The notes: generated from the letters alone by a model not told the origin. A stretch of 64,000 nt of DNA from an uncultured Roseivirga sp. (GCF_963973945.1 NZ_CAXBBV010000009.1:53108-117107), one strand, 5' to 3'; shown: positions 41,432 through 59,966, counted from the first letter of the stretch. Numbers and translations are program-made.

Positions 41432-41589
41432 CAATCCCCCAGCCCCCTTGGCCAAGGGGGAGGTGGTAACGATGTTGATTACTTTCAATACTACTTTCTC
41501 TTTTCTTTACCCTTATGGCTTCGGATTTTAACTAACCAATGCTGTCTATTCGAAGCCTTCCCCCTTTTTCAAAGGGGGCTAGGGGGATT
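41432..41589. repeat. ~158-bp REP-doublet unit, left copy
   Basis: CAATCCCCCAGCCCCCTTGGCCAAGGGGG...CCCCCTTTTTCAAAGGGGGCTAGGGGGATT, with internal hairpins and inverted termini. Confidence 0.9.
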
Positions 41590-41593
41590 ACGA

Positions 41594-41974
41594 TTACTCT
41601 ATCGCTTTATTCAATGTTTCTTCTGATAAATGGCCTTCAATCGTTCTAATTACATTTTTTAAGTCATATTTAACATCTACTTCCGCAATTCGAACAACTT
41701 TATATCCCAGCTCATTTAGTCTTAAGTCTCTTGTTCTATCCTGCTCTTGTTTGTCATCATGCGATCGGCCATCAAGTTCTATAATCAACCTTTCCTTTCT
41801 ACATATAAAATCAACAATGTAATTTTCGATTGCGAATTGTCTGTTAAACTGAAGTCCATAAAATCGTTTTGCCCTGAGCACATGAGCCCATAAGATGGCC
41901 TCACCGGGAGTTCCATGTTTTCGGAGCTCACGAGCCAATGGTTTTAGTTTCTTATTGTAACTGGACTTGTTCAT
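41594..41974 (-). CDS. DUF559-family (Vsr-like PD-(D/E)xK) endonuclease domain protein
   Basis: ARELRK..TPGEAILW...FNRQF.I..YIVDFIC....LIIELDGRSH...DR.RD..L..LGYKVVR. Confidence 0.93.
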   Translation of the reverse strand: MNKSSYNKKLKPLARELRKHGTPGEAILWAHVLRAKRFYGLQFNRQFAIENYIVDFICRKERLIIELDGRSHDDKQEQDRTRDLRLNELGYKVVRIAEVDVKYDLKNVIRTIEGHLSEETLNKAIE

Positions 41975-42017: not shown

Positions 42018-42174
42018 CAATCCCCCAACCCCCTTGGCCAAGGGGGACGCGGTTACGATGCTGATTACTATCAATATTTCTTCACCTTTTCTTTATCCTT
42101 TTGGCTTCGGCTTTGATTAAACACGGCTGTCTATTCGGAACCTTCCCCCTTTCTTAAAGGGGGGCAGGGGGATT
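42018..42174. repeat. ~157-bp REP-doublet unit, right copy (direct repeat of 41432-41589)
   Basis: CAATCCCCCAACCCCCTTGGCCAAGGGGG...CCCCCTTTCTTAAAGGGGGGCAGGGGGATT. It aligns end to end with the left copy, roughly 80% identical by eye. Confidence 0.9.
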
Positions 42175-42263: not shown

Positions 42264-42369
42264 TTGCCGTCCGCTAGCGGACGGCAAAGTGCGATGGCGA
42301 CCAATTAGCAAGAGGTTGTTTGTGTTAATTTATTGATATATAGTTAATTAACTTTGGTATGACAGTTGG
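42264..42369 (+). promoter_or_regulatory. Candidate sigma-54 promoter: palindromic UAS, IHF-like site and -24/-12 box
   Basis: Perfect 24-bp palindrome TTGCCGTCCGCTAGCGGACGGCAA (42264-42287); TATCAATAAATTA on the minus strand (42338-42326) matches WATCAANNNNTTR; TGGTAT-N5-TTGG (42355-42369) has the -24/-12 spacing. Confidence 0.6.
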
Positions 42370-42432: not shown

Positions 42433-44805
42433 ATGTTATCATCCTTTTTTAGAATAGCTTTTCGATACCTGGTAAAGAACAAGCTTTACTCTGTTCTGAA
42501 TATATTCGGACTGACAGTGGGCTTGATCTGCTTTGTCATTCTAAGCCTATATGTAAGGGAGCAATTTGATAAGGATACGTATCACGCTCACTCAGAAGAG
42601 ATCTACAGGGTTCTAGTAGCCAGAGATGATACTACAGAAGTCGAACCCAATTGGGAAATAATGACGCAATTTCCCGTGGCCGAGTTGTTCAAAGAAGGTA
42701 TTCCAGAGGTGAAAAACACAGTGAGATTTGGCCAAACTTCTGAGTTACTTGTTGAAGCTGGTCAACGAAAATTTAAGATTCAGTCTCTTCATTTTGCTGA
42801 CCCTTCCTTATTCGATGTATTTGATTTTGATGTGCTAGCGCAGTCTAAACCACTAGATCAGCAAACTGTAAGTGAGCTCATAATAGTGAAGTCTGAGGCA
42901 GAAAAACTCTTCGACTCTCCATCAGGTGCCATTAGTCAAACCGTAAATTTGAACGGTTATGGAATGTTTAAGGTGATTGGGGTAATTGATGATCTTGGTC
43001 AAGAAACTCATATGGGTTTCAAGTACATTCTTCCCGTTGAGCAATCTGATAAGGCTTACGGAGAAGATGGGCGTTATCGAGACTGGGGGGTATTGTCTGG
43101 GTTTCCGCTCTATGTTCAGATTGAAGAAAACGCACAGGTTGAAGATATTGAGCATAAAGCTAAGACACTTCTTCAGCCTCATATTAAGAACATGAGTGTT
43201 CGTTTAGAGCCTGTGAGTGAAGTTTACTTCAGTAAACTATATTCATTTTTTAAGAAAACGGGCGATAAACAATTTATAAGGCTATACTTACTCGTTGGGC
43301 TTCTGATTCTATTTATTGCTTGTATTAACTACACCAACTTATCAACCGCCAGATACCTAAAAAGAGCCAAGGAGGTTGGTATAAGAAAGACAGTTGGCGG
43401 TTACAGAAGTCAGATTATCACCCAATTTTTTATTGAGTCCATTGCGCTTGCCTTTATAGCTGTGGTACTTTCAGTATGTTTTACTGAAATACTTCTGCCT
43501 TCATTTAATGCTTTTGCGGGGTCTTCCATATTTATTGATTACCAAAGCCCCTTTACCTACTTATTTATGGTATTGGCTGTTTTGGGCATTGGCGTTTTTG
43601 CAGGGCTTTATCCCGCTGTTTTCCTCAGCCGTTTTAGTGCTACCCAAATTTTATCGGGCAGTGTAACTAAAGGCAAATCAGGTCTGCTTTTCAGAAATAT
43701 ATTGGTGGTGGTTCAATTCTTTATTTGTATTGGTTTGTTTATTTCTACCAATGTTATCTATCAACAATTCAGGCATTTAAAGTCGTTAGACTTGGGATTT
43801 GATAAGGAACAAGTGATTATGATTCCATTGAATGACCAAGCGATCAAACAATCATACAAAGCTTTTAAAAGTGAACTGAGCTCAAATCCTTCTATTGAAT
43901 GGATGACAGGAGCAGGGCCAAAAGTGTTTGGCGGACAAGCTCAGTTTTATTTAGAAATTGATGGAAGTGAGGACGTTACGCCCATTTCCATCTTCCCTGT
44001 TGATGAGGACTTCTTTCAAAAATTTGACATAAAACTATTGGAAGGAAAGCTCTATCAGCCTGAATTAGGTAAGGAGGGGAATGATTTTCTAATCGTGAAT
44101 GAAGCCTTGGCGAAAGTGGGTGGATGGAAGATTGAAGATAAGATGGGTAAGAATGTGTTTAAACGTAATGTGGGCGTCCCAAATTTGGGTGGGGTAGTTG
44201 AAGACTTCGTGTTCTTTTCGGTGAAAGATGAAGTAACACCAGCGGCATATCTTTATAAACCCAACGATAATAATCTGGCCTATATAAAGGTAAAGCCTGA
44301 AAACATGGAAGCCACTATTGCTTCTATTCGAGCCACTTACGAAAAATTTGCCAACCTTTATCCTTTTGAATACTCCTTTTTGGATCAAGAGTATGCTGCC
44401 CAATATGCAAAGGAGCAGCGTTTGGCCAACATATTTACCACCTTTAGTGCCGTAGCCATTTTAATTGCATTGCTAGGTTTGTTTGGGCTTACAATATTCT
44501 TGGCTGAACAACGCTTGAAAGAATTCAGCATACGAAAAGTGCTTGGCGCTTCAAACATCCATTTGATTTGGTTAATGAACAGTGGCATCAGCCGCATGTT
44601 GCTGATCAGTACCGCATTTGTGATTCCTTTGGTCTATTATTTCCTTAAAGATTGGATCAACACATTTGCTTTTAGAATTAAGCTTGATTGGCCTCTTTTT
44701 GCATTGCCAGTGGTCTTGGTAATGCTTTTTGCTTGGCTTACTACACTTTATCAGTCGGTTAATTCGGCAAGAAAAAACCCAGTAGATTCATTACGCAACG
44801 AATAA
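42433..44805 (+). CDS. Duplicated FtsX/MacB-type ABC transporter permease (copy 1)
   Basis: Two MacB_PCD+FtsX halves, ACINYTNLSTARYLKRAKEVGIRK, RLKEFSIRKVLGA and a C-terminal NPVDSLRNE. Confidence 0.93.
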   Translation: MLSSFFRIAFRYLVKNKLYSVLNIFGLTVGLICFVILSLYVREQFDKDTYHAHSEEIYRVLVARDDTTEVEPNWEIMTQFPVAELFKEGIPEVKNTVRFGQTSELLVEAGQRKFKIQSLHFADPSLFDVFDFDVLAQSKPLDQQTVSELIIVKSEAEKLFDSPSGAISQTVNLNGYGMFKVIGVIDDLGQETHMGFKYILPVEQSDKAYGEDGRYRDWGVLSGFPLYVQIEENAQVEDIEHKAKTLLQPHIKNMSVRLEPVSEVYFSKLYSFFKKTGDKQFIRLYLLVGLLILFIACINYTNLSTARYLKRAKEVGIRKTVGGYRSQIITQFFIESIALAFIAVVLSVCFTEILLPSFNAFAGSSIFIDYQSPFTYLFMVLAVLGIGVFAGLYPAVFLSRFSATQILSGSVTKGKSGLLFRNILVVVQFFICIGLFISTNVIYQQFRHLKSLDLGFDKEQVIMIPLNDQAIKQSYKAFKSELSSNPSIEWMTGAGPKVFGGQAQFYLEIDGSEDVTPISIFPVDEDFFQKFDIKLLEGKLYQPELGKEGNDFLIVNEALAKVGGWKIEDKMGKNVFKRNVGVPNLGGVVEDFVFFSVKDEVTPAAYLYKPNDNNLAYIKVKPENMEATIASIRATYEKFANLYPFEYSFLDQEYAAQYAKEQRLANIFTTFSAVAILIALLGLFGLTIFLAEQRLKEFSIRKVLGASNIHLIWLMNSGISRMLLISTAFVIPLVYYFLKDWINTFAFRIKLDWPLFALPVVLVMLFAWLTTLYQSVNSARKNPVDSLRNE

Positions 44806-44830
44806 ACTCAATTATTAAAACAACAAGGTC

Positions 44831-47224
44831 ATGTTTAAAAACTATGTAAACATTGCAATAAGAAGCCTTAAAAGACAAAAGGCCTACTCACTGATCAACA
44901 TCTCAGGATTATCGGTGGGTATTATGGCATGTATTATCATTCTACTCTATGTAAGGAATGAGTCATCCTATGAGGGTTTTTACCCCGATTCTGATAAGAT
45001 TTATCGCGTTACCAGTAGTTATGAAACTTCTGGCAATGTTCAGAATATAGCAATTACCCCAACAAAGATCACTCAAGTTTCTTTGGAACATATTCCTGAA
45101 ACAGAAGAAGCAACTTTCATTTATGATTGGAGGGTAGGTAGAGAGTTTTTGATGAAGTACAAGGACAAAACCTTTACCGAAACTAAAATCTATTATGCCG
45201 ACACAAGCTACTTTAAGGTTTTTCAGTATGAATTTTTAGAAGGAGATGTTAAAACAGCTTTAAGAGAACCACAAACCTTAATAATGACCGAAGAGTCGGC
45301 CATTAAATATTTTGGAGGTGCCTCGGAAGCTTACGGTAAAATCATCAAAGCCAATAATTCTGATTTTAAAGTAACAGGAGTAGTAAAGAAACCAATAGGA
45401 AACACTTCGTTGGCTTTTGACATGATAATTTCAGTACAATCGATTTTTGGTCAAATTGATAATGAGCGATGGTTTCCTATGAACTATTACACCTATGTAA
45501 AGCTTGCAGATGAGGCTGCGGCAAAAAGTTATTTGACTAAACTGAATGATTATGTAACAAAGGATTTTGGTGATGCGATGGAGGCTGGAGGGTTTAAGCT
45601 TTCTTATGATATTCAGCCCCTAACCGAAATGCATTTTGATATAACAAAAGGAGCAGATTATCCTGAGAAAATATCAAGAGAGTTGCTGTATTCACTAGTG
45701 GCCATAGCTGTTTTCATTCTATTAATTGCCTGCATTAATTATATCAATTTGAGTACGGCAAAATCTGAAAAACGAGCCAAAGAAGTAGGCATTAGAAAGG
45801 TAATGGGAGCCCATAGAAGACAGCTAATTCTTCAATTTTATGGGGAGACGTTTATGGTTACTCTTCTATCTGTAGTAATTGGGGTGGTTTTAGCCGAACT
45901 GTCATTGCCATTCTTTAATCAAATGGCAGGTACTCAGCTTTCTATAAGTCTTCAAAACGATCCCAATTTGTTGCTCATCCTAGTAGCTTTTGTTTTGGTA
46001 GTAAGCTTTATTTCTGGCAGTTATCCAGCATCATTTCTTTCTTCATTTCAGCCAGTTAAGGTACTTAAAGGCACTTTTAGTGTTAAGGGTGGAAATATGT
46101 TTCGAAGAATATTGGTTACACTTCAATTTACGGTAAGCGTTTTCCTTATCACCGGTACTTTGGTGATTTTCTATCAACTAAGGTATGTTCAGAGTACAGA
46201 TATTGGTTATGATCAAGATCAGGTAGTTTATCTAAAACTTCCAGACCGTACAGCTAGAGACGCCTATAGATCACTGAAATCTCGATTTGAAACCATTACG
46301 GGAGTTGAGGAAGTAACAGGAAGTAATAATGAAATTTCTAATGTGCTTTCGGGCTGGGGCGCTATCATGGACGGACTTCCAGAAAACGTAACCATTTCGT
46401 TTAGAGGTATGTATGGCGATCAGGATTTTCTAGAAACTTTTGGTTTCAATCTATTGGCGGGTGAAGGCTTTAAAAATAAGTCTGATTGGGATTCAACAGT
46501 TTATTACCTGGTAAACAAAACTGGGGTTGAAAAGCTGGGAATAAGCCCTGAAGAAGCGGTGGGAAAACGCTTTGGAATAGATGAAGGTATGATGGGCTAT
46601 ATAGCAGGAGTAGTAGATGATTTTCATTTTACTAGTTTTCATACAGACATAGAGCCTTGGGCGGCTTACACTGGACCTCAAAACTTTAAGCAATTACTTT
46701 ATGCAAAGGTCAATATGTCTCGAATTGAATCAGTAAAAGCTGAAATGGGCAAGGTATGGACTGATCTTGTACCAGATAGACCATTTGAACTGAGGTATGT
46801 GGACGAAGCGGTAAAAGGATTGTATGAAAAGGATAAACAGCTTAGCCAGATCATTCTCACTTTCACAGTCCTCGCCATTGCAATAGGCTGTTTAGGTCTG
46901 TTTGGCTTGGCTTCTTACTTAGCTGAAAAACGCACCAAAGAGATTGGTATTAGAAAAGTGCTTGGGGCCGATGTTTCCAAAATCGTCATGATGCTCTCTA
47001 AAGAATATGTCCGAATTATTTTGATTTCTAACCTCATCGGTTGGCCGATTGCTTACATCGCTATGAGTCGTTGGTTGGAAGGCTTTGCCTATAGTATTGA
47101 CTTAAGTTGGTATTATTTCCTTGTTGCTGGTTTGATGACTGTTATGGTAGCGATGTTTACGGTGTCATATCAGTCTGTGAAGGCGGCATTTTCTAATCCA
47201 GTAGATTCTTTAAGGAATGAGTAA
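44831..47224 (+). CDS. Duplicated FtsX/MacB-type ABC transporter permease (copy 2)
   Basis: ACINYINLSTA..EKRAKEVGIRKVMGA, RTKEIGIRKVLGA and NPVDSLRNE. Confidence 0.94.
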   Translation: MFKNYVNIAIRSLKRQKAYSLINISGLSVGIMACIIILLYVRNESSYEGFYPDSDKIYRVTSSYETSGNVQNIAITPTKITQVSLEHIPETEEATFIYDWRVGREFLMKYKDKTFTETKIYYADTSYFKVFQYEFLEGDVKTALREPQTLIMTEESAIKYFGGASEAYGKIIKANNSDFKVTGVVKKPIGNTSLAFDMIISVQSIFGQIDNERWFPMNYYTYVKLADEAAAKSYLTKLNDYVTKDFGDAMEAGGFKLSYDIQPLTEMHFDITKGADYPEKISRELLYSLVAIAVFILLIACINYINLSTAKSEKRAKEVGIRKVMGAHRRQLILQFYGETFMVTLLSVVIGVVLAELSLPFFNQMAGTQLSISLQNDPNLLLILVAFVLVVSFISGSYPASFLSSFQPVKVLKGTFSVKGGNMFRRILVTLQFTVSVFLITGTLVIFYQLRYVQSTDIGYDQDQVVYLKLPDRTARDAYRSLKSRFETITGVEEVTGSNNEISNVLSGWGAIMDGLPENVTISFRGMYGDQDFLETFGFNLLAGEGFKNKSDWDSTVYYLVNKTGVEKLGISPEEAVGKRFGIDEGMMGYIAGVVDDFHFTSFHTDIEPWAAYTGPQNFKQLLYAKVNMSRIESVKAEMGKVWTDLVPDRPFELRYVDEAVKGLYEKDKQLSQIILTFTVLAIAIGCLGLFGLASYLAEKRTKEIGIRKVLGADVSKIVMMLSKEYVRIILISNLIGWPIAYIAMSRWLEGFAYSIDLSWYYFLVAGLMTVMVAMFTVSYQSVKAAFSNPVDSLRNE

Positions 47225-47387
47225 AGCAATGAGCTATTGAAGTAATGAATTAAGGAGAGAGGGGATTAATGAGATAGTGAAGGAATGAGACAAATAAATT
47301 AATGAAAGAAGGTGTGAAGAGGGAAGTGGATTTTCGTTTTCACCAATGACCAATGACCAATGACCAATGACCAATGAACTATAACTA
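47225..47387. repeat. Intergenic spacer: purine-rich ~8-mers, TTTCGTTTTCAC, then (CCAATGA)x5
   Basis: Five perfect CCAATGA units at 47343-47377. Confidence 0.85.
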
Positions 47388-49739
47388 TTGATGAGATATT
47401 TTAAAACCATATTCCGAAGCCTAAAGCGTGAAAAGGGCTTTACTCTAATTAACCTTTTGGGCCTAAGCATTGGAATGTTTTGTTTTTTGGTAACGGCTCT
47501 TTTTGTAAGAGATGAAGTGACTTATGATCGTTGGCATGAGAATGCTGATAATATCTACATGTCTACTTTGCAATTACAAAAGGAAGATGGTGAGCCTATT
47601 GACCTAAGAACCTCTCATGCCTTTATGAAAGCATTAGAAGCAGAAAGCCCTGGTGTATTAGAAACAGTGAATATTAGTGGTGCAACCTGGAGCGATTATC
47701 AAATTAATGATGAATGGATATCAGGTCGCAAGGTCTTTTATTCGTCTCCTGAATTCTTTAAGGTATTCGATTTTAGTTTGAAGTACGGCAATGAAGAATT
47801 GGCGTTGACAGACCCAAGTGAGGTAATTCTTTCTTCAGAAATGGCGGAATCCATTTTCCCTGGAGTAAACCCAGTGGGCGAAACGATCACTTTTATAAAC
47901 GCTGTGTATAAAGTAGCAGGAGTGCTCAACCCAATACCTAAAAATTCACATTTGCAATTTGATTTTGTAAAGGGAACAACTTACGATGGTTCTAGATATG
48001 AACCTACGGAACTAGATTGGTTAGCGGGATATGGCTATAGCTACTTTTTATTGAGAGAAGATTACAGTGCCGAAAAACTTTTAGCGGATGCCAAAGCAAT
48101 TCTGGCTAGAAATGGAATTACTAATGAAGCAAATGGTCTACAGTTTTTAAGGTTCTCAAATTTATACCTCGACAGTAAAACCGGACGCTATGATAATGAT
48201 AATCTTTTCGGGGGGCAGCGTAAGTATTTATACATCTTCTCCTTGGTAGGAGGGCTTATCCTTTTTGTTGCCTGCTTTAATTATATCAATCTTACTACGG
48301 CTCGTTCCATTTCAAAGGTAAAGCAAATGGGCATTAGAAAAATAATGGGCGCTAGTCGTAGCAAACTGGTGCTTTCCCAAATGGCTGAAACATTTTCTCT
48401 GGCCTTTTGTGCTTTAATCATTGCCCTAATTGGATTAGAATTATTACTGCCCTACACTCAGTCACTAATTGGTAAAACTTTGGAATTGAATTTTTCGGAA
48501 GCTCCTCAACTTTTATTCTTACCCATTTGCTTGCTTGTATTGGTGGTTTTGGTTTCAGGTATCTATCCAGCACTTACGCTTAGTTCTTTTAATATTTCAG
48601 GAGTATTAAGGGGGAACCTGCCTCAATCCAAAGTGGGAATGCTACGAAAATCATTGTTTGTTTTGCAGTTTACAATCTGCTCTGGTTTGCTCATGGCTGC
48701 TTTAAGTATACGAGGTCAGGCCAATTATTTAATAGAGTTGGATAAAGGATATAATGAAGAGAATATTATGTCCATACGCCTTAATCAAGAAGGGCAGAAA
48801 CTCGACTATCAGACTGTAAGGAATGCCCTTGAAGCAATTCCTCAAATTGAAAAAATAACATCGACACCCTTACCTGCTTTTCCTCCAGGACCACCCAGCA
48901 TGTTAAAACTCAACGGAATAATGGTGCCTTTAACTATTTATTCTGGAGCGGCCGACAGGGACTTTAACAACCTTTTCGAACTTGAGTTTTTAGAAGGGTC
49001 TGATTTCAGCGCTCTTCCAATATCTCAATTGGACAGCGTAGTAATCATCAATGAAACTGCAAAGAAGAAGTTAGGCTTGAATCCTGCCATCGGTTCAAAA
49101 ATGCCTAGCGGAAAAACTGTAGTTGGTGTAGTTAAAGATTTTCATTTTAGTTCTGCTAAGTATGTCATAGAGCCTGCGGAGCTTTACTATAAACCAAAGG
49201 ATTTTCGCAACATACAATTCAGTTATCGTGCAGGAGATAAAGATGCAGTTATAGCGCACGTAACCTTGGCACTCTCTAAACTAGGTGTAACGGGAACGCC
49301 CAGTATTCAAGAAATCAAAGGTTATTTTGAATCAAGCTATAAAAAGGAAGCACAATTGGTTACCATTTTCGATGTGCTCACCACAATGGTCATACTAGTG
49401 GCCTTCTTAGGGCTTTTTGCCTTATCATCTTTTGAGAATAAACTTAGAGAAAAGGAAATAGGAATTAGAAAGGTGCTGGGTGCTACATATCTCCATTTGA
49501 TACGCACCCTGAACAAGCGATTCACTTGGCTGATTGCTTTGGCCATGATGATTTCTATACCGCTTACCTATTATGGAATTCAAAAATGGATTATAGACTT
49601 TCCATATAGGTTGGAGAACCTAAGTCCATTCTTCTCTCAAGCGATAATCATGGTTGGAATTTTAGCAATGACAGTGCTTGGTTTACATAGCTATTTCAGC
49701 GCTCAAAAGAACCCTGTGGATGTGTTGAGGAATGAATGA
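47388..49739 (+). CDS. Duplicated FtsX/MacB-type ABC transporter permease (copy 3)
   Basis: ACFNYINLTTARS, REKEIGIRKVLGA and NPVDVLRNE. Start is TTG 47388 or ATG 47391. Confidence 0.92.
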   Translation: MMRYFKTIFRSLKREKGFTLINLLGLSIGMFCFLVTALFVRDEVTYDRWHENADNIYMSTLQLQKEDGEPIDLRTSHAFMKALEAESPGVLETVNISGATWSDYQINDEWISGRKVFYSSPEFFKVFDFSLKYGNEELALTDPSEVILSSEMAESIFPGVNPVGETITFINAVYKVAGVLNPIPKNSHLQFDFVKGTTYDGSRYEPTELDWLAGYGYSYFLLREDYSAEKLLADAKAILARNGITNEANGLQFLRFSNLYLDSKTGRYDNDNLFGGQRKYLYIFSLVGGLILFVACFNYINLTTARSISKVKQMGIRKIMGASRSKLVLSQMAETFSLAFCALIIALIGLELLLPYTQSLIGKTLELNFSEAPQLLFLPICLLVLVVLVSGIYPALTLSSFNISGVLRGNLPQSKVGMLRKSLFVLQFTICSGLLMAALSIRGQANYLIELDKGYNEENIMSIRLNQEGQKLDYQTVRNALEAIPQIEKITSTPLPAFPPGPPSMLKLNGIMVPLTIYSGAADRDFNNLFELEFLEGSDFSALPISQLDSVVIINETAKKKLGLNPAIGSKMPSGKTVVGVVKDFHFSSAKYVIEPAELYYKPKDFRNIQFSYRAGDKDAVIAHVTLALSKLGVTGTPSIQEIKGYFESSYKKEAQLVTIFDVLTTMVILVAFLGLFALSSFENKLREKEIGIRKVLGATYLHLIRTLNKRFTWLIALAMMISIPLTYYGIQKWIIDFPYRLENLSPFFSQAIIMVGILAMTVLGLHSYFSAQKNPVDVLRNE

Positions 49740-49865
49740 ATGAAAGAAGGAGTGAAGGGATTAATGAAATAATGAGGAAGTGAAACAAGGAGGAAGACCG
49801 AAGCGGGTTCTCGTTTTCACCAATGACAAATGACCAATGACTAATTAACTAATAACCAAAGGGCT
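49740..49865. repeat. Intergenic spacer related to 47225-47387
   Basis: TCGTTTTCACCAATGACAAATGACCAATGACTAATTAACTAATAACC at 49811-49857. Confidence 0.85.
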
Positions 49866-52235
49866 ATGTTAAAAAACTATATCATTACCACGCTAAGAGG
49901 AATAAAGAGAAACAAGGTCTTTACATTGATTAACCTGACAGGTCTTTCAGTGGCCATGGCCTGTTTTATTTTGGTAGGACTCTATGTGCGATATGAGCTT
50001 TCCTATGATCAGTTTCATGAGGATGTAGAAGATATACACATTGTAAAACTGAAGTACGTAAAGAGTTTTGGAGGGTCATATAACCAATTTTTACCAGCCG
50101 TTTTTGCAGACATAATTGAAGAGGGAACGTCTGGTTTAAAAGGGGTGACAACCACTTTGTCGGGAGCAGGAAATATGTATGTGGTAAAGAATGGTGATGA
50201 CTACATTCAAGAGAAATATTATACGCTTCAGAATTCATTTTTTGATCTCTTCTCATTCCCTTTTCTCTATGGAAATCAAGCGAATGCTTTAACCAGTCCT
50301 AAAGCGGTGGTTGTTTCGTCAGAAATGGCAATCAAATATTTCAATAAAGAAAATGCAATTGGTGAAACGCTTTCTGTAGATGGTAAAGGAGACTTTAAAG
50401 TGACAGGTGTCCTAAAAGACTTTCCTAAAAATTCTCAGTTCCAACCTCATTTTTCTTTCTCTTTGAACGATATGGAGAACTTAGATTCATGGGGATACAA
50501 CACTTTTTTCATTTACATAAAAACAGAACCTAATGCAGATTTAGGCCAGATCAGAAATAGAATAGGAAGCTTATATGATGCCAACAAGCCAGAAGATGTC
50601 ATATATGGAGGTTCAGGTGCGGAGTTAGGCTCTTTTGCAGACTCCTATTGGGCACAAACGGGGAGTGGGGCAGCGCTAAATAACCGTGATAGAGGATTGG
50701 GAGCCAATAAAGATATTATTTATCTGTGCTCAGGCTTGGCCATTCTTCTACTGTTTATTGCCTTGGCCAATTATGTAAATATGGCGACTGCTAAAGCCAT
50801 GGAAAGGGCCAAAGAAGTAGGGATTCGTAAAGTGAATGGGGCTACTCAAAATCAACTGATTAAACAGTTTTTGGGTGAAACGCTCTTTTTCGCCTTGCTC
50901 TGTTTGGTGGTGGCCGTTATTATGGTAGAAATCCTTTTGCCTTCGGTATCCCAAATTATGGGCATCAGCCTGAAGATGGACTATGAAGACCTAACCATTT
51001 TGGGCTACTTATTGGCCTATGCATTGTTTTGTGGTCTTTTGGCTGGAATTTATCCAGCGGTGTTATTGTCGCGCTTCAACCCAGTTAAAGCCCTAAAAGG
51101 TCAGAAACAGCAAGGTCATTCTCGTTTTTCTCATCGCAGTGTTTTGCTCTTTTTTCAGTTCACTATCTCTGCCTTTATGATCATCGTGCTTTTGGTGGCC
51201 AATAAGCAAATCAATCATTACATCAACTTCGACCTTGGCTTTAATAAAGAAAGGGTGGTCAGTATTCGTATGACGAAGGAAATGCTTGAAAGACCTCATG
51301 TGTTTATGCAGGAGGTAAAGAATATTAGCGGTGTAGAAGGAGTAACCGTGGGACCACTTCCTGAAGGAGCATTTGGTTTTAGTACTTTGGAATATGAAGG
51401 CAAGACAATGAAGTATGCGCCAAAGGTTGAAACCGATGAGAACTTTATTTCAATGCTTGAAATTCCCTTATTGGCAGGAAGGAATTTTGATCCAGAAATT
51501 CCATCAGATACTGAAAACTCGATCATCATTAATGAAATGCTAGCAAAAACGCTTGGATTGGAGAATCCAGTAGGGGCAACGGTGCTCTCTGATGGGAGTA
51601 CCAAGAGAATAATTGGTTTAATAAAGGATTTCCACATCACAAGTGCCAGGCATCAAGTAAGAGAGTTGATGCTAGCACCTATGCTCAGCAGCGGAAGAGT
51701 AAATAACCTACTGATCAAGGTGAACGCTCAGAACATGGCCAGCACCTTAGGGCAGATTGATGCCATTTGGGATCAGTTCGATTATAAGGATTCGTATCAA
51801 TACCAGTTTTTAGATGATGCCTATGAGGCCAAGTTAAGTAGGTTGCAAAATCTTACTTTAATCATTAACGGAGTTACCACCGCCATTGTGGTCATTTCCC
51901 TCTTTGGGCTATTCTCTTTGGTTGCCTTTCAAACTTCACAACGTATCAAGGAAATTAGCATTCGAAAAGTACTTGGCGCTACCGTGAATAACATCCTCTT
52001 TATTTTAGGAAAACCTTATGCTTGGTTGATTCTTTTATCATCTCTGGTGTCCATACCATTGGCCTATTACTTTATGGGCAACGCACTCAATGGATATCCT
52101 AACCGGATTGATTTGGATGCATCGTTTGGAGTCATCACAGTGATCAGTATTCTGAGTTTTTCAGCTCTGGTATTACTGAGTAGGGCGCTTTCAACTATTA
52201 GGACGAATCCAGTAGATATTTTGAGGAACGAATAG
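49866..52235 (+). CDS. Duplicated FtsX/MacB-type ABC transporter permease (copy 4)
   Basis: ALANYVNMATA..MERAKEVGIRK, RIKEISIRKVLGA and NPVDILRNE. Confidence 0.93.
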   Translation: MLKNYIITTLRGIKRNKVFTLINLTGLSVAMACFILVGLYVRYELSYDQFHEDVEDIHIVKLKYVKSFGGSYNQFLPAVFADIIEEGTSGLKGVTTTLSGAGNMYVVKNGDDYIQEKYYTLQNSFFDLFSFPFLYGNQANALTSPKAVVVSSEMAIKYFNKENAIGETLSVDGKGDFKVTGVLKDFPKNSQFQPHFSFSLNDMENLDSWGYNTFFIYIKTEPNADLGQIRNRIGSLYDANKPEDVIYGGSGAELGSFADSYWAQTGSGAALNNRDRGLGANKDIIYLCSGLAILLLFIALANYVNMATAKAMERAKEVGIRKVNGATQNQLIKQFLGETLFFALLCLVVAVIMVEILLPSVSQIMGISLKMDYEDLTILGYLLAYALFCGLLAGIYPAVLLSRFNPVKALKGQKQQGHSRFSHRSVLLFFQFTISAFMIIVLLVANKQINHYINFDLGFNKERVVSIRMTKEMLERPHVFMQEVKNISGVEGVTVGPLPEGAFGFSTLEYEGKTMKYAPKVETDENFISMLEIPLLAGRNFDPEIPSDTENSIIINEMLAKTLGLENPVGATVLSDGSTKRIIGLIKDFHITSARHQVRELMLAPMLSSGRVNNLLIKVNAQNMASTLGQIDAIWDQFDYKDSYQYQFLDDAYEAKLSRLQNLTLIINGVTTAIVVISLFGLFSLVAFQTSQRIKEISIRKVLGATVNNILFILGKPYAWLILLSSLVSIPLAYYFMGNALNGYPNRIDLDASFGVITVISILSFSALVLLSRALSTIRTNPVDILRNE

Positions 52236-52318
52236 GTCGGTCAATAGTCAATGGACATTGGTCAATAGTTTGAGTTGGCTGATTCCCAATGACCAATTAA
52301 CTAATAAACCAACAAGCT
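52236..52318. repeat. Intergenic spacer with inverted heptamers
   Basis: Left part GGTCAAT AGTCAAT GGACATT GGTCAAT (reverse-oriented heptamers); right part CCAATGACCAATTAACTAATAAACCAA. Confidence 0.75.
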
Positions 52319-54664
52319 ATGCTACGAAACTACATCAAAGTCGCTTTTAGAAACCTGAGAAGAAACAAGCTTTATGCAAGCCTAAACATATTAGGTTTGA
52401 GTATAGGTTTAGGTTCATTCTTTATCATCTACCTTTTTCTTCAGAATGAATTGGCATATGACCAGTTTCATGAAAAGAAGGACAGGATTTATAGGGTGGT
52501 AACAATTGCTGAAAGCGATTTTGGGGTAGAAAAGGAGGCAGGAATGAGCTATGCTTTTTCTCCTGCCCTTATAGGAAATATTCCTGGGATTGAGGCATTT
52601 AGTAGAGTTATACAAAAAAATATTCTTTTCTCATTTAATGAGGGGGATGAAAACATTGACGGTACGGAGACCTTGACAGTAGACCAAGGTTTTTTATATT
52701 TTTTCACCATATACTTTATTCACGGATCGGCTCAAACATCACTTCAATCACCTTATTCACTTATTATTGACGAGGCGACCGCATTAAAACATTACGGAAC
52801 AACGGATGTATTAGGCAAAATCGTAAAATATAATAAAGTCAATTATACCATTGATGCTGTATTTCGTGATCTTCCCAAAAGCTCATCAATCAAAGGCAAT
52901 ATCATAGTACTGAATGAAACTATAAATGCACGTTATGGTGAGGGCAATTGGAGCTGGAGATTAAATAATTTACAGAACTATATACTCTTAAATGATAATA
53001 CCACACTAAGCGAGTTGGAAAATAAGCTCACAGATCTTTACGTATCAAATAACAAGTGGGCTGCGGGTAAAAAGCTTAGTTTACAACCTATTGCTGATGT
53101 TCATTATTCATTAGATGTGAGGGATGAGGTGAAGGAAAAGACTGACCGTCAGTACGTTTCAATTTTTGCATTTGTAGCCATTTTCATTTTAGCTAGCTCC
53201 ATTTTTAACTACATCAGTTTATCAGTCTCCCAATCTATTGAAAGAGCAAAAGAGATCGGGGTTCGAAAAGTGGCAGGCGCAAGCAGCAAAGAATTGCGCA
53301 AACAATTTATAATCGAATCATTATTGCATGTCCTTATCAGCTTTGTGCTCTCCATGATTTTAGTGGAATTACTTATTCCTCAACTAGAGGATTTAGTAGA
53401 AAGGAATTTAGGTATCAGCGTTTTAACACAGCCTGTTTTGCTACTCAAAGGAATTGGGTTCTCTTTGGTTATTGCGTTGCTCTGTTCGCTTTACCCAACC
53501 TCTTTGAGTACCAGACTAAAAGTGGTGAATATCTTTAAAAAAGGCAAAGGTAGCTTTTCGTCTCAACGATTAATCAACTCCATAAGTGTTTTTCAAATTG
53601 TTGTATTCATAGTACTTATTTGTGTTTCTGTTACAGCCAACCGGCAAATGGGTTTTATGCGAAACGAAAACCTAGGTTTTGATAAAGATCATCAATTGGT
53701 ATTGGAAAACATGCCTTGGAGAACTAGAGAGGTTCACAAGAGTGAGTTGCTAAAACTGCCAGGTGTAATATCGGTCAGTAGTGGTAGCCAGCTCCCTAAT
53801 GACGTTAGATCTTCGATGGGATTTCCAGAGCTTGATTTTCAATTTAGTTTCTTCGAAATAGACCATGACTTTATTGAGACTATGGGTATGACTCTTTTGA
53901 GCGGTCGAGATTTTGTGCTCGAAGATACTGACTCGGCTAAATTGGTTTTGATAAATTCAACTGCCGCAAAGAATTTAGGTTATGATAAAGCAAGTGCTGT
54001 GGGTAAAACCATGGGGTCGGGCTCTTCTACGCATAGGATCATTGGCGTAGTGAGTGATTTTCACTTCGCCTCCAAAAAGCAAATCATTGAGCCAGTGATT
54101 TTCAAACAGGTGATTGAAGGCTCGCCAAGCAATCAAGTTTTAGTTAAACTAGATGGGGTTAATTGGGCAGCTACTACAAAAAATGTATTGAAATACTACG
54201 AAGACATACCTAATCTCTATAAGTACTCTTACTTCTTTTTAGAAGACCAAATCAACTCCCAATACAAACAAGAAAATGTGATGATTACCATGTTAAACAC
54301 TTTTACGGTAATTGCAGCTTTGGTGGCTTTTATTGGGCTCTTTGGCATTGCTGGTTATTCAGTGAAAAGGAGATTGAAGGAAATGGGGATTCGAAAAGTG
54401 CTGGGTGCTGGCTTCTTCAGTATTCAAAAGGTGTTGAATGTTTCAAGTGTATGGAAACTACTGGTTGCTGTGGCTATTGCTGTGCCTGTAGTGGTGTATT
54501 GGATGAACAATTGGCTGAGTTCTTTTGCTTATCGCATTGAAATGCCTGTCTTCCTAATCTTCGGAGCCATTGCCGTTGCCTCAATCGTAATTTTCATTAC
54601 TGTTTCCATTCACAGTATAAAAGCCTATTTGATTAACCCAGTGGAGATATTGAAAGACGAATGA
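52319..54664 (+). CDS. Duplicated FtsX/MacB-type ABC transporter permease (copy 5)
   Basis: IFNYISLSVSQSIERAKEIGVRK, RLKEMGIRKVLGA and NPVEILKDE. Confidence 0.93.
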   Translation: MLRNYIKVAFRNLRRNKLYASLNILGLSIGLGSFFIIYLFLQNELAYDQFHEKKDRIYRVVTIAESDFGVEKEAGMSYAFSPALIGNIPGIEAFSRVIQKNILFSFNEGDENIDGTETLTVDQGFLYFFTIYFIHGSAQTSLQSPYSLIIDEATALKHYGTTDVLGKIVKYNKVNYTIDAVFRDLPKSSSIKGNIIVLNETINARYGEGNWSWRLNNLQNYILLNDNTTLSELENKLTDLYVSNNKWAAGKKLSLQPIADVHYSLDVRDEVKEKTDRQYVSIFAFVAIFILASSIFNYISLSVSQSIERAKEIGVRKVAGASSKELRKQFIIESLLHVLISFVLSMILVELLIPQLEDLVERNLGISVLTQPVLLLKGIGFSLVIALLCSLYPTSLSTRLKVVNIFKKGKGSFSSQRLINSISVFQIVVFIVLICVSVTANRQMGFMRNENLGFDKDHQLVLENMPWRTREVHKSELLKLPGVISVSSGSQLPNDVRSSMGFPELDFQFSFFEIDHDFIETMGMTLLSGRDFVLEDTDSAKLVLINSTAAKNLGYDKASAVGKTMGSGSSTHRIIGVVSDFHFASKKQIIEPVIFKQVIEGSPSNQVLVKLDGVNWAATTKNVLKYYEDIPNLYKYSYFFLEDQINSQYKQENVMITMLNTFTVIAALVAFIGLFGIAGYSVKRRLKEMGIRKVLGAGFFSIQKVLNVSSVWKLLVAVAIAVPVVVYWMNNWLSSFAYRIEMPVFLIFGAIAVASIVIFITVSIHSIKAYLINPVEILKDE

Positions 54665-54779
54665 AGCAATGAATTAAGGGATTAATGAAGGAGTGAAAGA
54701 AGGTTGGCAGACCGAAGAAGGAAGTCAAAAGCTGGTTTCGTTTTCACTAATGACCAATTAACTAATAAACCAATACGCT
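54665..54779. repeat. Intergenic spacer related to the other permease spacers
   Basis: TTTCGTTTTCACTAATGACCAATTAACTAATAAACCAA at 54736-54773. Confidence 0.85.
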
Positions 54780-57133
54780 ATGTTACGGAATTATATAAAA
54801 TCAGCTTTTACTAACCTAAAACGAAATACGGGTTACACACTGCTTATGATCTTTTCATGGCTTTGGGCATGTATTGCTTTGTGATGGCTGGGCTCTATGT
54901 ACGCTATGAATATTCCAGAAATCTAAATCACGCCAATGCGGATAGGGTGTATAGGGTGATGCTAGATTATGAGCGATATCATCAATATATATTAGCGGAT
55001 ATGGTAGCAGAAATGCCGAATGTAAGTCCAGATATTGAGGCTGTTAACGTGATTAATTCCTATAACGGAGAAGTTTACTTAAGTAAGGATGATCAATCTT
55101 TCATTAGACAAGCAAAGGCTTTTTATACTGACCCCAATGTGTTCGATGTGTTTAGCTTTCCTTTGAAATACGGAAACCCTGAAAATGCTTTGGCTGGTAC
55201 AGGGAAAATAGTGATTTCAAGCTTTTTGTCAGAAAGTCTATTTCCAAATAAAAACCCAATTGGCAAGGAAATTTTGGTTCATGAAAAAGGAACATTCTTA
55301 ATTAGCGGAGTGCTTGAAGAAGTGTCTGAATTATCAATATTAAATCCTGGGATCTTCTTTTCAATGGATCAGTTTGTGGCGGACACTAAAGCCAGTGGTA
55401 ATACAGATGCAATGCTAACGCATGTTTTGTTAAAAGAAGGAGCTGACCTTAATCGTTTTAAAGTGAGCTTGCTTAGGATTGCCCAAACTATGGCGCCTAC
55501 GGAAGGATTGAAAGGCATATATACTGAAAAACTAGCAGACGCATACTGGGGTAATTCAATCTATGATTATGGTGCGCAGTACTACTCCCTTTTTGGGGCT
55601 TCCAAAAAAATGATAAAGACTGTACTGTACGTGAGCATTGGCGTATTGCTTTGTGCCTTTTTGGGTTATGTAGCCATTGCATTGAGTTTATCCTTAAAAA
55701 GGGCGAAAGAGGTAGGGATTAGAAAGGTAAACGGTGCAAATGTTAGCACCGTTCGAAGTCAATTCTTAGTTGAATCAGTGGTTTATGCGGCTATATCTTT
55801 ATTGCTAACGGTTGTGGCTTTGGAAATTTCTGGAAAGTGGGTTTCTGACTTGCTTCAAGTGCCTATTAGTTTGAGGATGGATCAACCTGAAGTGATTATA
55901 TTCTTAATCACTTTTACACTTATTACAGGTCTTATTGCTGGCCTATATCCTGCATTCATAGTTTCTAAATTGAACCCTGTAAAAGTACTTTCTGGTTTTT
56001 CAAGCCCAACGGGTTCTGGCTTTGTTATGAAACGGGTTTTGCTTACAGCGCAATTTGTAATTACCATCTGCTTGGTTTTCGGAGTGTATGTACTTAAGCT
56101 TCAGGTTTCCCAAATGGCTCACTTCGATAATGGCTATTCGATTGAAAATATCCTGTCTTTCGACAATACAAATCCAGAAATGAAGAAGAATAGCACAGTG
56201 CTTTTAGAGTCGTTGCGCTCAGTTTCTGGAGTTGTAGAAGTAGCCAAAGGGCCATTTCCTCTTAATTTCAATGGGTTTTCTAAAGTGAAGATACAAATGG
56301 GGGATAGCCTTATTCAAGATAATCCTTCTAGAATATTTGTATCGGAAAACTTCTTTGAAACTATGGGGATTAAGCTTCTAGAAGGAGGTTCTTTCAATGG
56401 AGTATCAGATGAAAACTCTTGCTTAATTAACGAGAGTTTTGCGGCTCAACATGGCTTAGTAAATCCATTAGGAATGACCTTGAATGTTGATGGGAAGCCA
56501 AGAACAGTGATTGGCGTAGTGAGTAATTATGCGGATTGGGGTGTAAGTAATCCAACTCCGATGAGCCATGTATTTCTGCCTGCTGTTGATACCAAGTTCC
56601 ATAGTTATTTATTGAAGATTTCTGACAATAATCAGGCTAGTGTAATGGCGCAGTTGGAAACGGTGTGGAAGAAGTTTGACCCAGTTAAAGACGCACGTAT
56701 TTTTACTTTAAGGGATAGAGTTAATAATTCCGTTCAGAAGGTATCTAAAATCTCAACGCTCTTTAGCATTTTGGCAGGAGTGGTGCTATTGCTTTCTTTT
56801 ATGAACCTATTCGGTATGGCCATTATGTTTGCTAATTCCAAGATGAAAGCAGTTAGTATTCGTAAAATTCTAGGGGCAAGTGTTCCTGAATTACTTGGAA
56901 GGTTGTCACTTCCTTTTCTTTATAGCCTTATTATCGCTTTACTGATTGCTTTACCTATTGGCTATTATTTGATGGAACAATACCTGCAAGACTATGCGGT
57001 AAGGATAAGCCTGAATGCGGGTCAAGGTCTTATCGCAGGAATCTTTATGATTGTACTACTATTTGTGGTTATCGGCTTTAAAATGCTCCAATTCAGTAAA
57101 ACCAATCCCATTGAAGTGTTGAGGAAGGAGTAG
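54780..57133 (+). pseudogene. Duplicated FtsX/MacB-type permease (copy 6) with a 1-bp frameshift near 54856
   Basis: ATG 54780 reads MLRNYIKSAFTNLKRNTGYTLLMIFS, homologous to the N-termini of copies 4 and 5, then goes out of frame. The rest continues from 54857 (MALG...NPIEVLRKE). Confidence 0.85.
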
Positions 57134-57202: not shown

Positions 57203-57240
57203 CATAAAAAAAGCGACTATCACTGGTCGCTTTTTTTATG
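57203..57240. terminator. Bidirectional intrinsic terminator
   Basis: CATAAAAAAAGCGAC-N8-GTCGCTTTTTTTATG, a perfect 15-bp stem between the permease array and the convergent amidohydrolase operon. Confidence 0.88.
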
Positions 57241-57255
57241 GTATTAGAAATAAGC

Positions 57256-58581
57256 TTACTTCTTAATGATTTTGATAGCAGGGTCGTTCTTCTTAACACC
57301 TGGAGTTCTATTTAAGAATTCATCATACAATCTGATTTGCTGAGAAGTCATTGGTACTTTGTAGCCGTCAATGAACAAGTCAGTAATCTTAGTAGCGGTT
57401 TCAAAAGGATCACCAGTAGAAATAAACACGTTTGCTTTCTTACCTACTTCAATAGATCCAATTTGATCAGAAACACCTAGGATCTGAGCTGCATTGATAG
57501 TGATTGCTTTTAATGCTTCTTCTTTACCCATTCCGTAAGAAGCCGCAAAGCCTGCATGGTAAGGTAAGTTTCTCACATTTTCAGTATCACCAGTACGCAA
57601 GGCTACTTTAACACCTGCCGCACTCATAATTCCTGGGTTTGCATAAGCTGCATCATATTTATCTGATCCACGAGTAGGGATAGCTTGAATAGGCCCAGCA
57701 ATTACAGGAAGCTTAGATTTAGCAATTTCTTCAGCAACTCTCCAGCCTTCAGAAACACCAGTTAAAACCACTTTCTTATAACCTCTAGTTTTCACCCAGT
57801 CAATAGCAGCAAGGATATCCTTTGCAGCGTTTGCTTCGATGAAAAGTTGCATTTCGCCTTTAACCACAGGTACTAATGCTTCGATTTCAGGGTAGTTTCT
57901 TACCTCACCTGAGTTTTCGATTTTAGCATAAAGCTCTGCTTTGTCCCAAGCATCGTTTACTGTTTTTAATGCTCTTTCAGTAGCCTTAGCTTGCTCTTCA
58001 GGAGATCTTCTTCTGAAACGTCCTCCACCAGCGGTAGAAGGGAAGTTCATAATGATCCCTTTTGCACCAGCAAACATTTGGTCTGGAGTGTAACCGAACA
58101 AGTTGATTGCAGCAGCCGTACCTGGTAAAAACCCTCCGCTAGGAGTAGTCCATACTGTAGTAACACCACTTACACGGGTTACAGGAATTACAGCCGAATT
58201 AGGGTTTACTGCTGTTAGTGCTTGCATTTGAGGTGTTAAAGCTCCGCTTTCGCTAAAATCTTGAGACACATCAATACTACCTATTTCAGATAAACCCACT
58301 TTAGTTCCTGAATCAATCATACCTGGGTAAATCTCTTTACCCTTACAGTCAATTACTTCCGCATCATCTGGAATATTAACATTGGCACCAACTGCTTCGA
58401 TAATACCGTTGTTGATGATCAAAGTACCGTTTTCAATAATACCGTTGGTTACAGTATAAATTTTGGCATTTGTTAGAGCAAATTTGCCCGCCCGTGCCTT
58501 CATTACTTGGTCGTCTTCTTGCCCGAAAGAAAGAAGTGGAACCATTAAAGCAATAATGAGTATTTGGAATATTCTTTTCAT
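57256..58581 (-). CDS. Amidohydrolase-superfamily protein, secreted; metal-binding HxH absent
   Basis: ALTNAKIYTV, NGIIEAVG, IYPGMIDSGT (in place of IDxHxH) and GSIEVGKKAN. Signal peptide. Confidence 0.85.
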   Translation of the reverse strand: MKRIFQILIIALMVPLLSFGQEDDQVMKARAGKFALTNAKIYTVTNGIIENGTLIINNGIIEAVGANVNIPDDAEVIDCKGKEIYPGMIDSGTKVGLSEIGSIDVSQDFSESGALTPQMQALTAVNPNSAVIPVTRVSGVTTVWTTPSGGFLPGTAAAINLFGYTPDQMFAGAKGIIMNFPSTAGGGRFRRRSPEEQAKATERALKTVNDAWDKAELYAKIENSGEVRNYPEIEALVPVVKGEMQLFIEANAAKDILAAIDWVKTRGYKKVVLTGVSEGWRVAEEIAKSKLPVIAGPIQAIPTRGSDKYDAAYANPGIMSAAGVKVALRTGDTENVRNLPYHAGFAASYGMGKEEALKAITINAAQILGVSDQIGSIEVGKKANVFISTGDPFETATKITDLFIDGYKVPMTSQQIRLYDEFLNRTPGVKKNDPAIKIIKK

Positions 58582-58590
58582 AGCTTCTTT

Positions 58591-59955: not shown

Positions 59956-59966
59956 GTTTTCAGATT

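Follow-up and report, generated by a model that had tools for sequence, protein, structure and literature searches.

How can an operon work that encodes permeases of an ATP-driven transport system but none of the partners such systems need? This question is raised by a stretch of 64,000 nucleotides (the window) from an uncultured Roseivirga sp. (GCF_963973945.1, NZ_CAXBBV010000009.1:53108-117107), which represents C9:53108-117107 of a 26-contig, 4.46-Mb assembly (G000; positions outside the window are given with the contig, C1, C2 and so on). Orthologues with 84% identity place the genome in Roseivirga (Cytophagales, Bacteroidota). Six consecutive open reading frames (ORFs) on the plus strand of the window, from 42433 to 57133, encode permeases and there is no other content. 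A preliminary description of this DNA had reported six tandem duplicated permeases without ATPase, adaptor or TolC, which is borne out by the ORF calls and by the Pfam, outer membrane efflux protein (OEP) and adaptor searches: no gene for an ATP-binding cassette (ABC) ATPase, a HlyD-type adaptor or an OEP/TolC protein lies inside the array operon, and the OEP and adaptor searches gave no match anywhere on the window's contig. The same description had proposed that the missing partners are supplied in trans. This is supported by our analysis, according to which the permeases probably use motor parts encoded on contig C2 (and C1) in trans as a tripartite pump.

The six genes, all on the plus strand, are P1 (42433-44805, 790 aa), P2 (44831-47224, 797 aa), which starts 25 bp past P1, P3 (47388-49739, 783 aa), P4 (49866-52235, 789 aa), P5 (52319-54664, 781 aa) and P6 with a broken 5' end (listed ORF 54857-57133, 758 aa as called; real ATG at 54780). 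In all six proteins two FtsX domains (PF02687) score above the Pfam cut-offs, and the ABC_tran domain is absent from all six according to Pfam. The MacB periplasmic core domain (MacB_PCD, PF12704) scores above its cut-off in two separate stretches in P3 to P6 and in one in P1 and P2; likewise a six-frame scan of the own genome found a second, weaker match to this domain in P3 to P6 and none in P1 and P2. For P2 an AlphaFold2 model was made (pLDDT 79.1, pTM 0.73), and this model has a second periplasmic domain at residues ~456-665. Hydropathy predicts eight transmembrane (TM) helices and two periplasmic domains of ~230-240 aa, in agreement with the P2 model. Both place a first periplasmic domain of ~240 aa between TM1 and TM2, a short linker in the cytoplasm between TM4 and TM5, and a second periplasmic domain of ~230 aa between TM5 and TM6, with TM8 as the last helix. 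As predicted from model and hydropathy, the window permeases are two MacB-type 4-TM units fused head-to-tail with 8 TM helices in total; P1 accordingly is a fused double FtsX/MacB_PCD type VII ABC permease. Showing the hallmark of the type VII ABC (MacB/FtsX) superfamily, an FtsX 4-TM unit whose TM1 and TM2 are separated by a large MacB periplasmic core domain, they are almost certainly type VII permeases resembling DarB and the acidobacterial duplicated orphan permeases (ADOPs).

Using a profile built from the six proteins we found 58 duplicated permeases of 758-910 aa, which make up ~3% of the genome and are grouped in an array of eight (at a contig edge), the six of the window, three arrays of four, two pairs and 28 singles. 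These 58 permeases face only one DarC-like adaptor (the next match has 47 bits) and two DarD-like ATPases, A and B. The adaptor (C2:172615-173874, 169 bits to DarC), ATPase A (C2:173913-174626, 284 bits to DarD) and a TolC-family gene (C2:174738-176075) form an operon in this order (C2:172615-176075) without any permease, the nearest duplicated permease being 17 kb off. ATPase B is encoded at C1:314534-315247 (236 bits to DarD). The search for a cognate ATPase and adaptor elsewhere in the genome, suggested in the preliminary description, yielded these candidates at C2, with a second candidate ATPase at C1. The two ATPases differ in the D-loop (GNLD in A, GNLH in B) and in the signature (LSGGQQQR in A, LSGGQQQL in B). 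ATPase B may supply the other half of a motor that is a heterodimer.

Further ATPases of the MacB/LolD/FtsE class are one FtsE-like, one LolD-like and one YbbA-like protein, the latter beside a YbbP-like permease of 855 aa. Two untyped ones complete the list: a 211-aa ATPase adjoins a 418-aa MacB_PCD permease (C1:28940-30828), and a MacB-class ATPase (C6:123829-124575, 223 bits to ATPase A) adjoins an 859-aa membrane ORF which is not FtsX-like. A motor partner inside the window was rejected, the sole ABC_tran match there being an ORF of 545 aa with two nucleotide-binding domains (NBDs) on the minus strand (10569-12206), which is of a different class.

The assignment of the C2 operon to the permeases in trans is the best-supported reading because of the kinship of the regulators, the conservation of an operon lacking permeases, phyletic co-occurrence and linkage in cis. 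Divergent from the array, on the minus strand of the window, lie the genes for a histidine kinase (38695-40059) with a PAS and a HATPase_c domain (Pfam) and two N-terminal TM helices, and for a sigma-54-dependent response regulator (40040-41416), here called the activator, with a receiver, a Sigma54_activat AAA+ and a Fis-type helix-turn-helix domain (Pfam E 9.7e-69). The window activator matches the one at C2 with 627 bits and its sisters on C17, C4 and C8, each of which is encoded divergently beside a permease array, with 601, 546 and 505 bits; all other activators of this type reach at most 290 bits. Kinase and activator of C2 are the closest paralogues of the window's pair and are encoded divergently from the C2 module.

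In 49 genomes of Roseivirga, Cyclobacteriaceae, Reichenbachiella and Marinoscillum the adaptor and ATPase genes are adjacent; TolC is next in most of the loci long enough to show it, the activator lies upstream in most, and in none of the 49 was a permease found within 8 kb on either side of adaptor and ATPase. Between close species ATPase A is 99-100% identical, the adaptor 85-93% and the permeases 60-95%, and in farther relatives ATPase A still shows ~80% identity where the adaptor has 56% and TolC 37%. Such hub-like conservation is expected of a subunit fitting many partners.

The number of first-look MacB_PCD candidates per genome (unscored counts) ranges from 7 to 418 within the genus and is 106 in the own genome. 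Twelve genomes from other families of the order have 3-12 candidates, save three with 23, 59 and 90. Orthologues of the adaptor and of ATPase B are found in all three of these expanded genomes and in none of the nine unexpanded ones, and in the expanded genomes matches of the ATPase A type lie directly beside the adaptor. None of the genes for adaptor, ATPase A and ATPase B is present in the one Roseivirga genome, 84% complete, which has just 7 candidates. Direct linkage occurs in two of the three expanded genomes from other families: in G029, the genes for kinase and activator on the minus strand are followed by adaptor, ATPase and at least nine duplicated permeases on one strand, and in G023 adaptor and ATPase precede three permeases. 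The idea of one shared motor, put forward in the preliminary description, gains support from these genome comparisons, with the amendment that the motor probably includes two ATPases. Two genomes of the same genus (G012 and G016, 8.6-8.8 Mb) have 418 and 330 first-look candidates and two tandem adaptor genes; if scored, these would come to well over a hundred duplicated permeases per genome.

A -24/-12-like element, TGGTATGACAGTTGG (TGGTAT-N5-TTGG, 42355-42369, plus strand), lies 64 bp ahead of the P1 start, and ~68 bp upstream of the -24 box there is a perfect palindrome of 24 bp, TTGCCGTCCGCTAGCGGACGGCAA (42264-42287), which is a candidate activator site. The box geometry is kept in the metagenome-assembled genome (MAG) PB_MBin.40 (L004) and in R. 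pacifica (L003) (TTGGTACGGTGCTTGG), as is the palindrome core CCGTCCG-N5-CGGACGG, and in R. echinicomitans (L007) the -12 box is TTGA and the palindrome is degenerate. The C2 adaptor gene is preceded by the same box geometry (TGGCATCTTTGTTGG). The conserved TGGTAY-N5-TTGG has the right spacing for sigma-54, with GG instead of GC in the -12 box; the activator gene is adjacent, and rpoN is present in the genome at C14:48689. Judged from the sequence, the array would be under sigma-54 control and the palindrome would serve as activator-binding site. Scanning the upstream regions of all 58 paralogues for the canonical TGGCAC-N5-TTGC gave almost no matches, the C2 adaptor gene being matched with this first pattern. 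The looser TGG-N9-TG[CG] is present upstream of nine of the 58, the window included, and with so few occurrences a sigma-54 promoter for the whole family is not claimed.

At C2 the activator and adaptor genes are separated by a gap of 580 bp (C2:172035-172615). On its plus strand, ~200 bp ahead of the adaptor start, this gap contains a hairpin resembling a terminator (GGCTCGATT-N8-AATCGAGCC, then T7), and no gene was called upstream of it on this strand. The hairpin could act as an attenuator or as an activator site, or be a small transcript. A different regulator is found with a subclass of permeases of 860-910 aa, which at 14 loci or more are preceded by PadR genes (~110 aa) in the same orientation, for example at C7:109849-123080, C1:170856-176458 and C9:194288-197301. 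PadR-linked and sigma-54-linked permeases are interleaved in the tree, therefore regulators have been exchanged repeatedly.

The preliminary description had seen shared TM motifs and widely differing periplasmic domains, which is right in degree. The six copies are ~30% identical, both mutually and to the remaining paralogues of the genome, with 31-40% identity in the membrane and cytoplasmic parts and 20-22% in the periplasmic domains. Compared pairwise, the 58 paralogues have an identity of 0.34-0.39 in membrane segments and N-terminus, 0.29 in the short cytoplasmic linker and 0.23 in the periplasmic domains. Invariant columns cluster in two cytoplasmic loops with the motif R..KE.GIRKV.GA (P2 residues 315-326 and 701-713), which correspond to the coupling helices of MacB. 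Through such a helix, type VII permeases work with an NBD subunit of the MacB/LolD/FtsE class, and ATPases of this class are encoded in trans.

Several observations weigh against a single pump chassis shared in trans. Conservation of the coupling-helix motif is a general trait of the FtsX family and singles out no ATPase. The -12 box reads TTGG and not the canonical TTGC, and a recognisable box is missing at most other paralogues. The candidate upstream palindromes at the window, C8 and C2 loci are unlike one another, therefore motor operon and arrays seem to be under different activators and their co-expression is not guaranteed. The phyletic comparison comprises only four independent lineages with expansions, and the candidate counts behind it are unscored. 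Finally, ATPase B adjoins one duplicated permease (C1:315352-317796) at a locus without adaptor, and therefore some or all of the permeases could be machines of the inner membrane only. An ORF upstream of this permease (C1:317910-319136) was considered as adaptor and discarded, as it looks by eye like an HD-domain membrane protein and gave no adaptor match with phmmer.

This last point leads to the strongest alternative, that the permeases do use an ATPase in trans, for instance ATPase B, and act without adaptor and TolC as inner-membrane extractors or mechanotransducers like LolCDE, YbbAP and FtsEX, each pair of periplasmic domains handling a different lipid, lipoprotein or periplasmic enzyme. 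In a Foldseek search of the PDB with the P2 model the top match is indeed E. coli YbbAP (9ge6, E 3.9e-20, TM-score 0.49), which is the best full-length fold match and needs no TolC; MacB, the S. pneumoniae Spr0694-5 transporter, LolCDE, BceAB and HrtBA follow among the further matches, and the periplasmic domain of a Porphyromonas permease (3is6) superposes on domain 1 of P2 at 2.8 Å. Besides the locus of ATPase B, the three genes for secreted amidohydrolases directly downstream of the array, in a conserved flank, would fit such a role. A sequence profile search of the PDB, however, which returned the same families, has 3is6, the periplasmic domain of an uncharacterised permease, as single top match, and the closest solved full-length relatives by sequence are MacB proteins, which work with adaptors. 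Moreover, an adaptor gene heads the string of ATPase and permease genes in G029 and G023, the presence of the adaptor matches the expansions exactly in the 12 genomes of other families, and a TolC gene is part of the ATPase A operon in most of the 49 genomes. We therefore consider a function confined to the inner membrane unlikely and retain the tripartite pump assembled in trans.

Comparison with curated families and known systems places the array near several of them and inside none. The six proteins score 174.4-282.5 bits with the ADOP model TIGR03434 (NCBIfam cut-off 622.3); DarB (NF038008) is the second-best NCBIfam family with a top score of 176.6 bits (cut-off 700), and PRK10535 (MacB) gives at most 58 bits (cut-off 966) and fails to match two copies altogether. 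As all scores are below threshold, the proteins were not assigned to ADOP, DarB or MacB, and the array has an ADOP/DarB-like architecture outside the curated families. The resemblance to ADOPs noticed in the preliminary description consequently holds for the architecture and the 'orphan' state and not for TIGR03434 proper (174-282 versus 622 bits). Like ADOPs, the proteins have ~800 aa with a tandem duplication of TM1, periplasmic core domain and TM2-4, no adjacent ATPase, and many paralogues per genome which are often arrayed. ADOP family members are frequently paired with a PadR-family regulator; the window array differs in having a sigma-54 two-component system beside it.

The darobactin exporter DarBCD consists of a duplicated permease (DarB, model of 777 positions), a separate ATPase (DarD, NF038007) and an adaptor (DarC, NF038010), and DarD and DarC are the best families for ATPase A and the adaptor of this genome (284 and 169 bits). 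However, all scores lie under the equivalog cut-offs (375, 450 and 700), and the neighbours of the array are kinase, activator and amidohydrolase genes, with no gene for a ribosomally synthesised and post-translationally modified peptide precursor or a radical-SAM enzyme nearby. In DarBCD adaptor and ATPase serve a single permease, whereas in this genome one adaptor, two DarD-like ATPases and 58 permeases are encoded apart. With MacAB-TolC (PDB 5nik, 5lil, 5gko) the array shares the FtsX 4-TM unit, the MacB periplasmic core, a MacA-like adaptor and a TolC-like duct in the genome and, presumably, mechanotransmission as mechanism. MacB itself carries its NBD fused at the N-terminus, forms a homodimer and is encoded together with its partners; in the window permeases two units make up one chain, the NBD is a protein of its own, and the partner genes are at other sites. 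YbbAP (PDB 9ge6, 9ge7) likewise combines a separate ATPase with a permease that consists of two fused units and has two periplasmic domains; it is the closest full-length structure, but YbbP has two extra linking TM helices (10 TM; PMC5985334), its ATPase gene is adjacent and the sequence identity is 13%. A YbbAP-like pair is also encoded in this genome, at C1:824658-827936.

According to a review of the MacB family, fused permeases such as YbbP and BceB always have a separately encoded NBD, and the 8-TM fused form is not described there (PMC5985334). ADOP-annotated expansions of 28-33 copies are known from Dyadobacter (PMC11573002), and Psychroflexus torquis has a cluster of ten ADOP paralogues which is abundantly expressed according to proteomics and whose function is stated to be unknown (PMC3914696). 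The literature found on ADOP-like permeases goes no further than copy counts (PMC11573002) and a remark on high expression (PMC3914696), and in our literature searches no publication named an ATPase or adaptor for orphan permeases. The family and its Bacteroidota arrays are already on record and the window array is a typical example.

The kinase next to the array suggests another role. Its two TM helices are joined by an external loop of at most six residues according to hydropathy, which is the topology of intramembrane sensing, and all five sister kinases share these features. Having no external sensor domain, such a kinase could receive its signal from a permease, so that P1 and P2 at least would mainly be sensors which report transport activity to the kinase as in BceAB-BceS. 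The P1-P2 pair stays beside the two-component system while the remainder of the array turns over, and BceAB-S structures are among the fold matches. Permeases of the BceB type, however, differ from the window permeases in their 10 TM helices and single external domain; the cytoplasmic PAS domain of the kinase could sense alone, and the PadR-linked paralogues have no kinase at all. A mainly sensory role is still less likely than one confined to the inner membrane; it is compatible with the pump reading, and would give the array a part in sensing no smaller than its part in transport.

The preliminary description had suggested comparing the array content between strains, and a comparison of sister species revealed 6, 6, 7, 8 and 10 copies in differing order. 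Stable one-to-one orthologues in fixed succession, which would have spoken against the preliminary reading, were thus not seen. While this genome has P1 P2 P3 P4 P5 P6, the six copies of R. ehrenbergii are P1 P2 P3' (60%) P4 P5 P6 and the seven of R. seohaensis P1 P2 X1 P3 P4 P5 P6' (42%). MAG PB_MBin.40 has eight (X0 P1 P2 P3'' (46%) P5 P5' (61%) P3 P6'' (69%)) and R. echinicomitans ten (X0 P1 P2 P5' (60%) P3 X1 P4 P5 P5'' (61%) P6). X0 and X1 have no orthologue in this genome (best match at most 35%). In close relatives the P1-P2 pair alone is constant, including its 25-bp spacer; P3 orthologues are 60-71% identical and occupy differing array positions, and one or two extra P5-like copies with 60-61% identity occur in the relatives. 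P1 (91-95%) and P6 (94%) are among the copies best conserved in the sister species. The flanks of the array are 96-99% identical there, with the activator (99%) on the left and the first amidohydrolase (96%) on the right; the kinase has 96-98% identity.

The proposed phylogeny of the six copies against the other paralogues was also run and identifies them as ancient paralogues and not recent duplicates. In the maximum likelihood tree only P3, P4 and P6 group (SH-aLRT 95-96); P1 and P2 are placed elsewhere, and P5 joins the first gene of another sigma-54 array, both on long branches. Because P1, P2 and P5 are scattered and the terminal branches measure 1-2 substitutions per site, the array is a collection of old lineages. 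Recent tandem amplification was rejected, in view of the ~30% identity, the clustering of P3, P4 and P6 only and the long branches.

The copies also differ in their divergence from one and the same sister species, which at 4-fold sites is ~0.35-0.38 for P1 and P6, ~0.55 for P2 and ~0.65 for P3, the synonymous divergence (dS) of the activator being 0.36. In the comparison of P4 with R. ehrenbergii the 4-fold sites give 0.25 for the membrane part and 0.66 and 0.57 for the periplasmic domains (Fisher p = 3e-7), so that P4 appears as a clear mosaic produced by intragenic recombination. The signal is weak in P5 (p = 0.01), and P1, P2, P3 and P6 are uniform (4-fold sites at conserved residues). A general swapping of periplasmic segments was considered and dropped: Nei-Gojobori dS looked strongly mosaic, and the test at 4-fold sites upheld P4 alone and, weakly, P5.

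In the membrane and cytoplasmic parts the identity to close orthologues is 93-98% for P1, P2, P4 and P6, 67-80% for P3 and 88-91% for P5, and in periplasmic domain 1 it is 53-93%. The ratio of nonsynonymous to synonymous rates (omega) is 0.02-0.08 in the membrane parts and 0.07-0.17 in periplasmic domain 1, P6 included. Purifying selection acts throughout, although in most copies the rate of evolution is several-fold higher in the periplasmic domain than in the membrane parts. With omega not exceeding 0.17, there is no support for positive selection on the periplasmic domains.

The sixth copy is the exception to an otherwise intact array. The P6 ORF as called begins within TM1 and has only seven TM helices according to hydropathy. 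A three-frame translation revealed an intact-looking N-terminus (MLRNYIKSAFTNLKRNTGYTLLMIFS), encoded from 54780 in a different frame, and alignment of the DNA with two orthologues located a deletion of 1 nt (one T) between 54857 and 54858, at codon ~27, with the frame shifted. The listed P6 is without TM1 because of this deletion; its orthologues have 784 aa and are intact. The frameshift means either a pseudogene or an assembly error. The preliminary description of ~14.7 kb containing only FtsX/MacB-type permeases of ~790 aa therefore stands for content, bounding box and hairpin and fails for the frameshifted sixth copy. That the whole array is dead weight, consisting of drifting duplicates of a once complete pump no longer joined to an ATPase, could be read from P6, from the free gain and loss of copies between species and from the lack of a partner gene nearby, but it is very improbable with five of six frames intact over ~790 codons, omega of 0.02-0.17 in all copies including P6 versus its orthologues, membrane parts 93-98% identical to orthologues in four of six copies, coupling-helix columns invariant across 58 paralogues, and a homologous Psychroflexus cluster that is abundant as protein (PMC3914696).

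The spacers after P2 (47225-47387), P3 (49740-49865), P4 (52236-52318) and P5 (54665-54779) have one common architecture. They contain purine-rich ATTAATGA/GGAATGA heptamers; a ...CGTTTTCAC core is present after P2, P3 and P5. Repeats of the heptamer CCAATGA occur in up to five copies after P2 and in shorter runs after P3 to P5. A AATTAACTAATAA tail, the motif of which is found nowhere else in the genome, follows P3, P4 and P5. The spacer between P4 and P5 is the most reduced one, and the constant 25-bp junction of P1 and P2 has none of these repeats. Array spacers of sister species are built alike, even beside copies missing here. The repeats could be a recombination substrate for array turnover, or processing or translation signals.

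On the right side the array ends at a hairpin, GCGAC-N8-GTCGC with flanking A- and T-runs (57206-57237), between the array and the convergent amidohydrolase genes. It is a putative two-way intrinsic terminator, read directly from the sequence; it is not among the hairpins listed by a scan for consensus terminators. The three tandem genes beyond it (57256-61676, minus strand) encode amidohydrolase-family proteins of 441, 454 and 569 aa, all of which begin with a signal peptide. The first of them (57256-58581, minus strand) is the right flank of the array in four sister genomes and is not adjacent to the array in R. pacifica and the CG12 MAG. On the left side an ORF of 126 aa with an endonuclease-like DUF559 domain (41594-41974, minus strand) lies between the activator gene and the promoter region of the array. 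It is bracketed by direct repeats of ~160 nt (41432-41589 and 42018-42174), which are 83-86% identical and rich in CCCCCTTGGCCAAGGGGG-type palindromes. The ORF occupies the same site in four relatives (L001, L004, L005, L007) and is absent in three (L002, L003, L006), therefore it looks like a small mobile or insertion-prone element.

Putting these observations together, the array might work as follows. The divergent intramembrane-sensing kinase and its NtrC-type regulator would probably switch on one sigma-54 transcript over P1 to P6, which encode five intact fused permeases and a frameshifted one, none of them autonomous. Each pseudo-dimeric permease would bind two NBD subunits encoded in trans, ATPase A and possibly also ATPase B, and then dock to the single DarC-like adaptor and the TolC-family duct. 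The resulting pump, similar to MacAB-TolC, would expel periplasmic or membrane-embedded substrates by ATP-driven mechanotransmission. In such a scheme a common chassis would be fitted with any of 58 exchangeable front ends, the permease paralogues, whose rapidly changing periplasmic domains would determine the substrate; which of them is produced would depend on separate regulators, namely five sister sigma-54 two-component systems and at least 14 PadR genes. Gene content, architecture, paralogue numbers, kinship of the regulators, co-occurrence across genomes, linkage in relatives, array turnover and purifying selection were observed directly, and physical assembly, sigma-54 control, transport direction and substrates are inferred. 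The co-distribution of the two ATPases suggests a chassis with two NBD genes; an A/B heterodimer on an asymmetric permease is speculation.

A wider and more tentative picture, which we regard as possible rather than probable, is that of a combinatorial envelope pump of the Cytophagales. One highly conserved chassis (an adaptor, two ATPases, perhaps as A/B heterodimer, and TolC) would serve dozens to perhaps hundreds of permeases with recombining periplasmic domains, each array having its own sensor, either a sister sigma-54 two-component system or a PadR repressor; the whole would be an inducible repertoire for export or detoxification with a turnover like that of defence islands. For the window alone the result is modest. 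In Bacteroidota, Acidobacteria and Verrucomicrobia of soil and sea, however, duplicated orphan permeases of the MacB type belong to the larger gene expansions that lack an explanation, and with named partners (one adaptor, two ATPases and one TolC) the 'orphan' permeases become a testable assembly. One chassis for many permeases, if true, would be an unusual stoichiometry for an ABC system and would lend itself to studies of substrate selection by the periplasmic domains of type VII systems.

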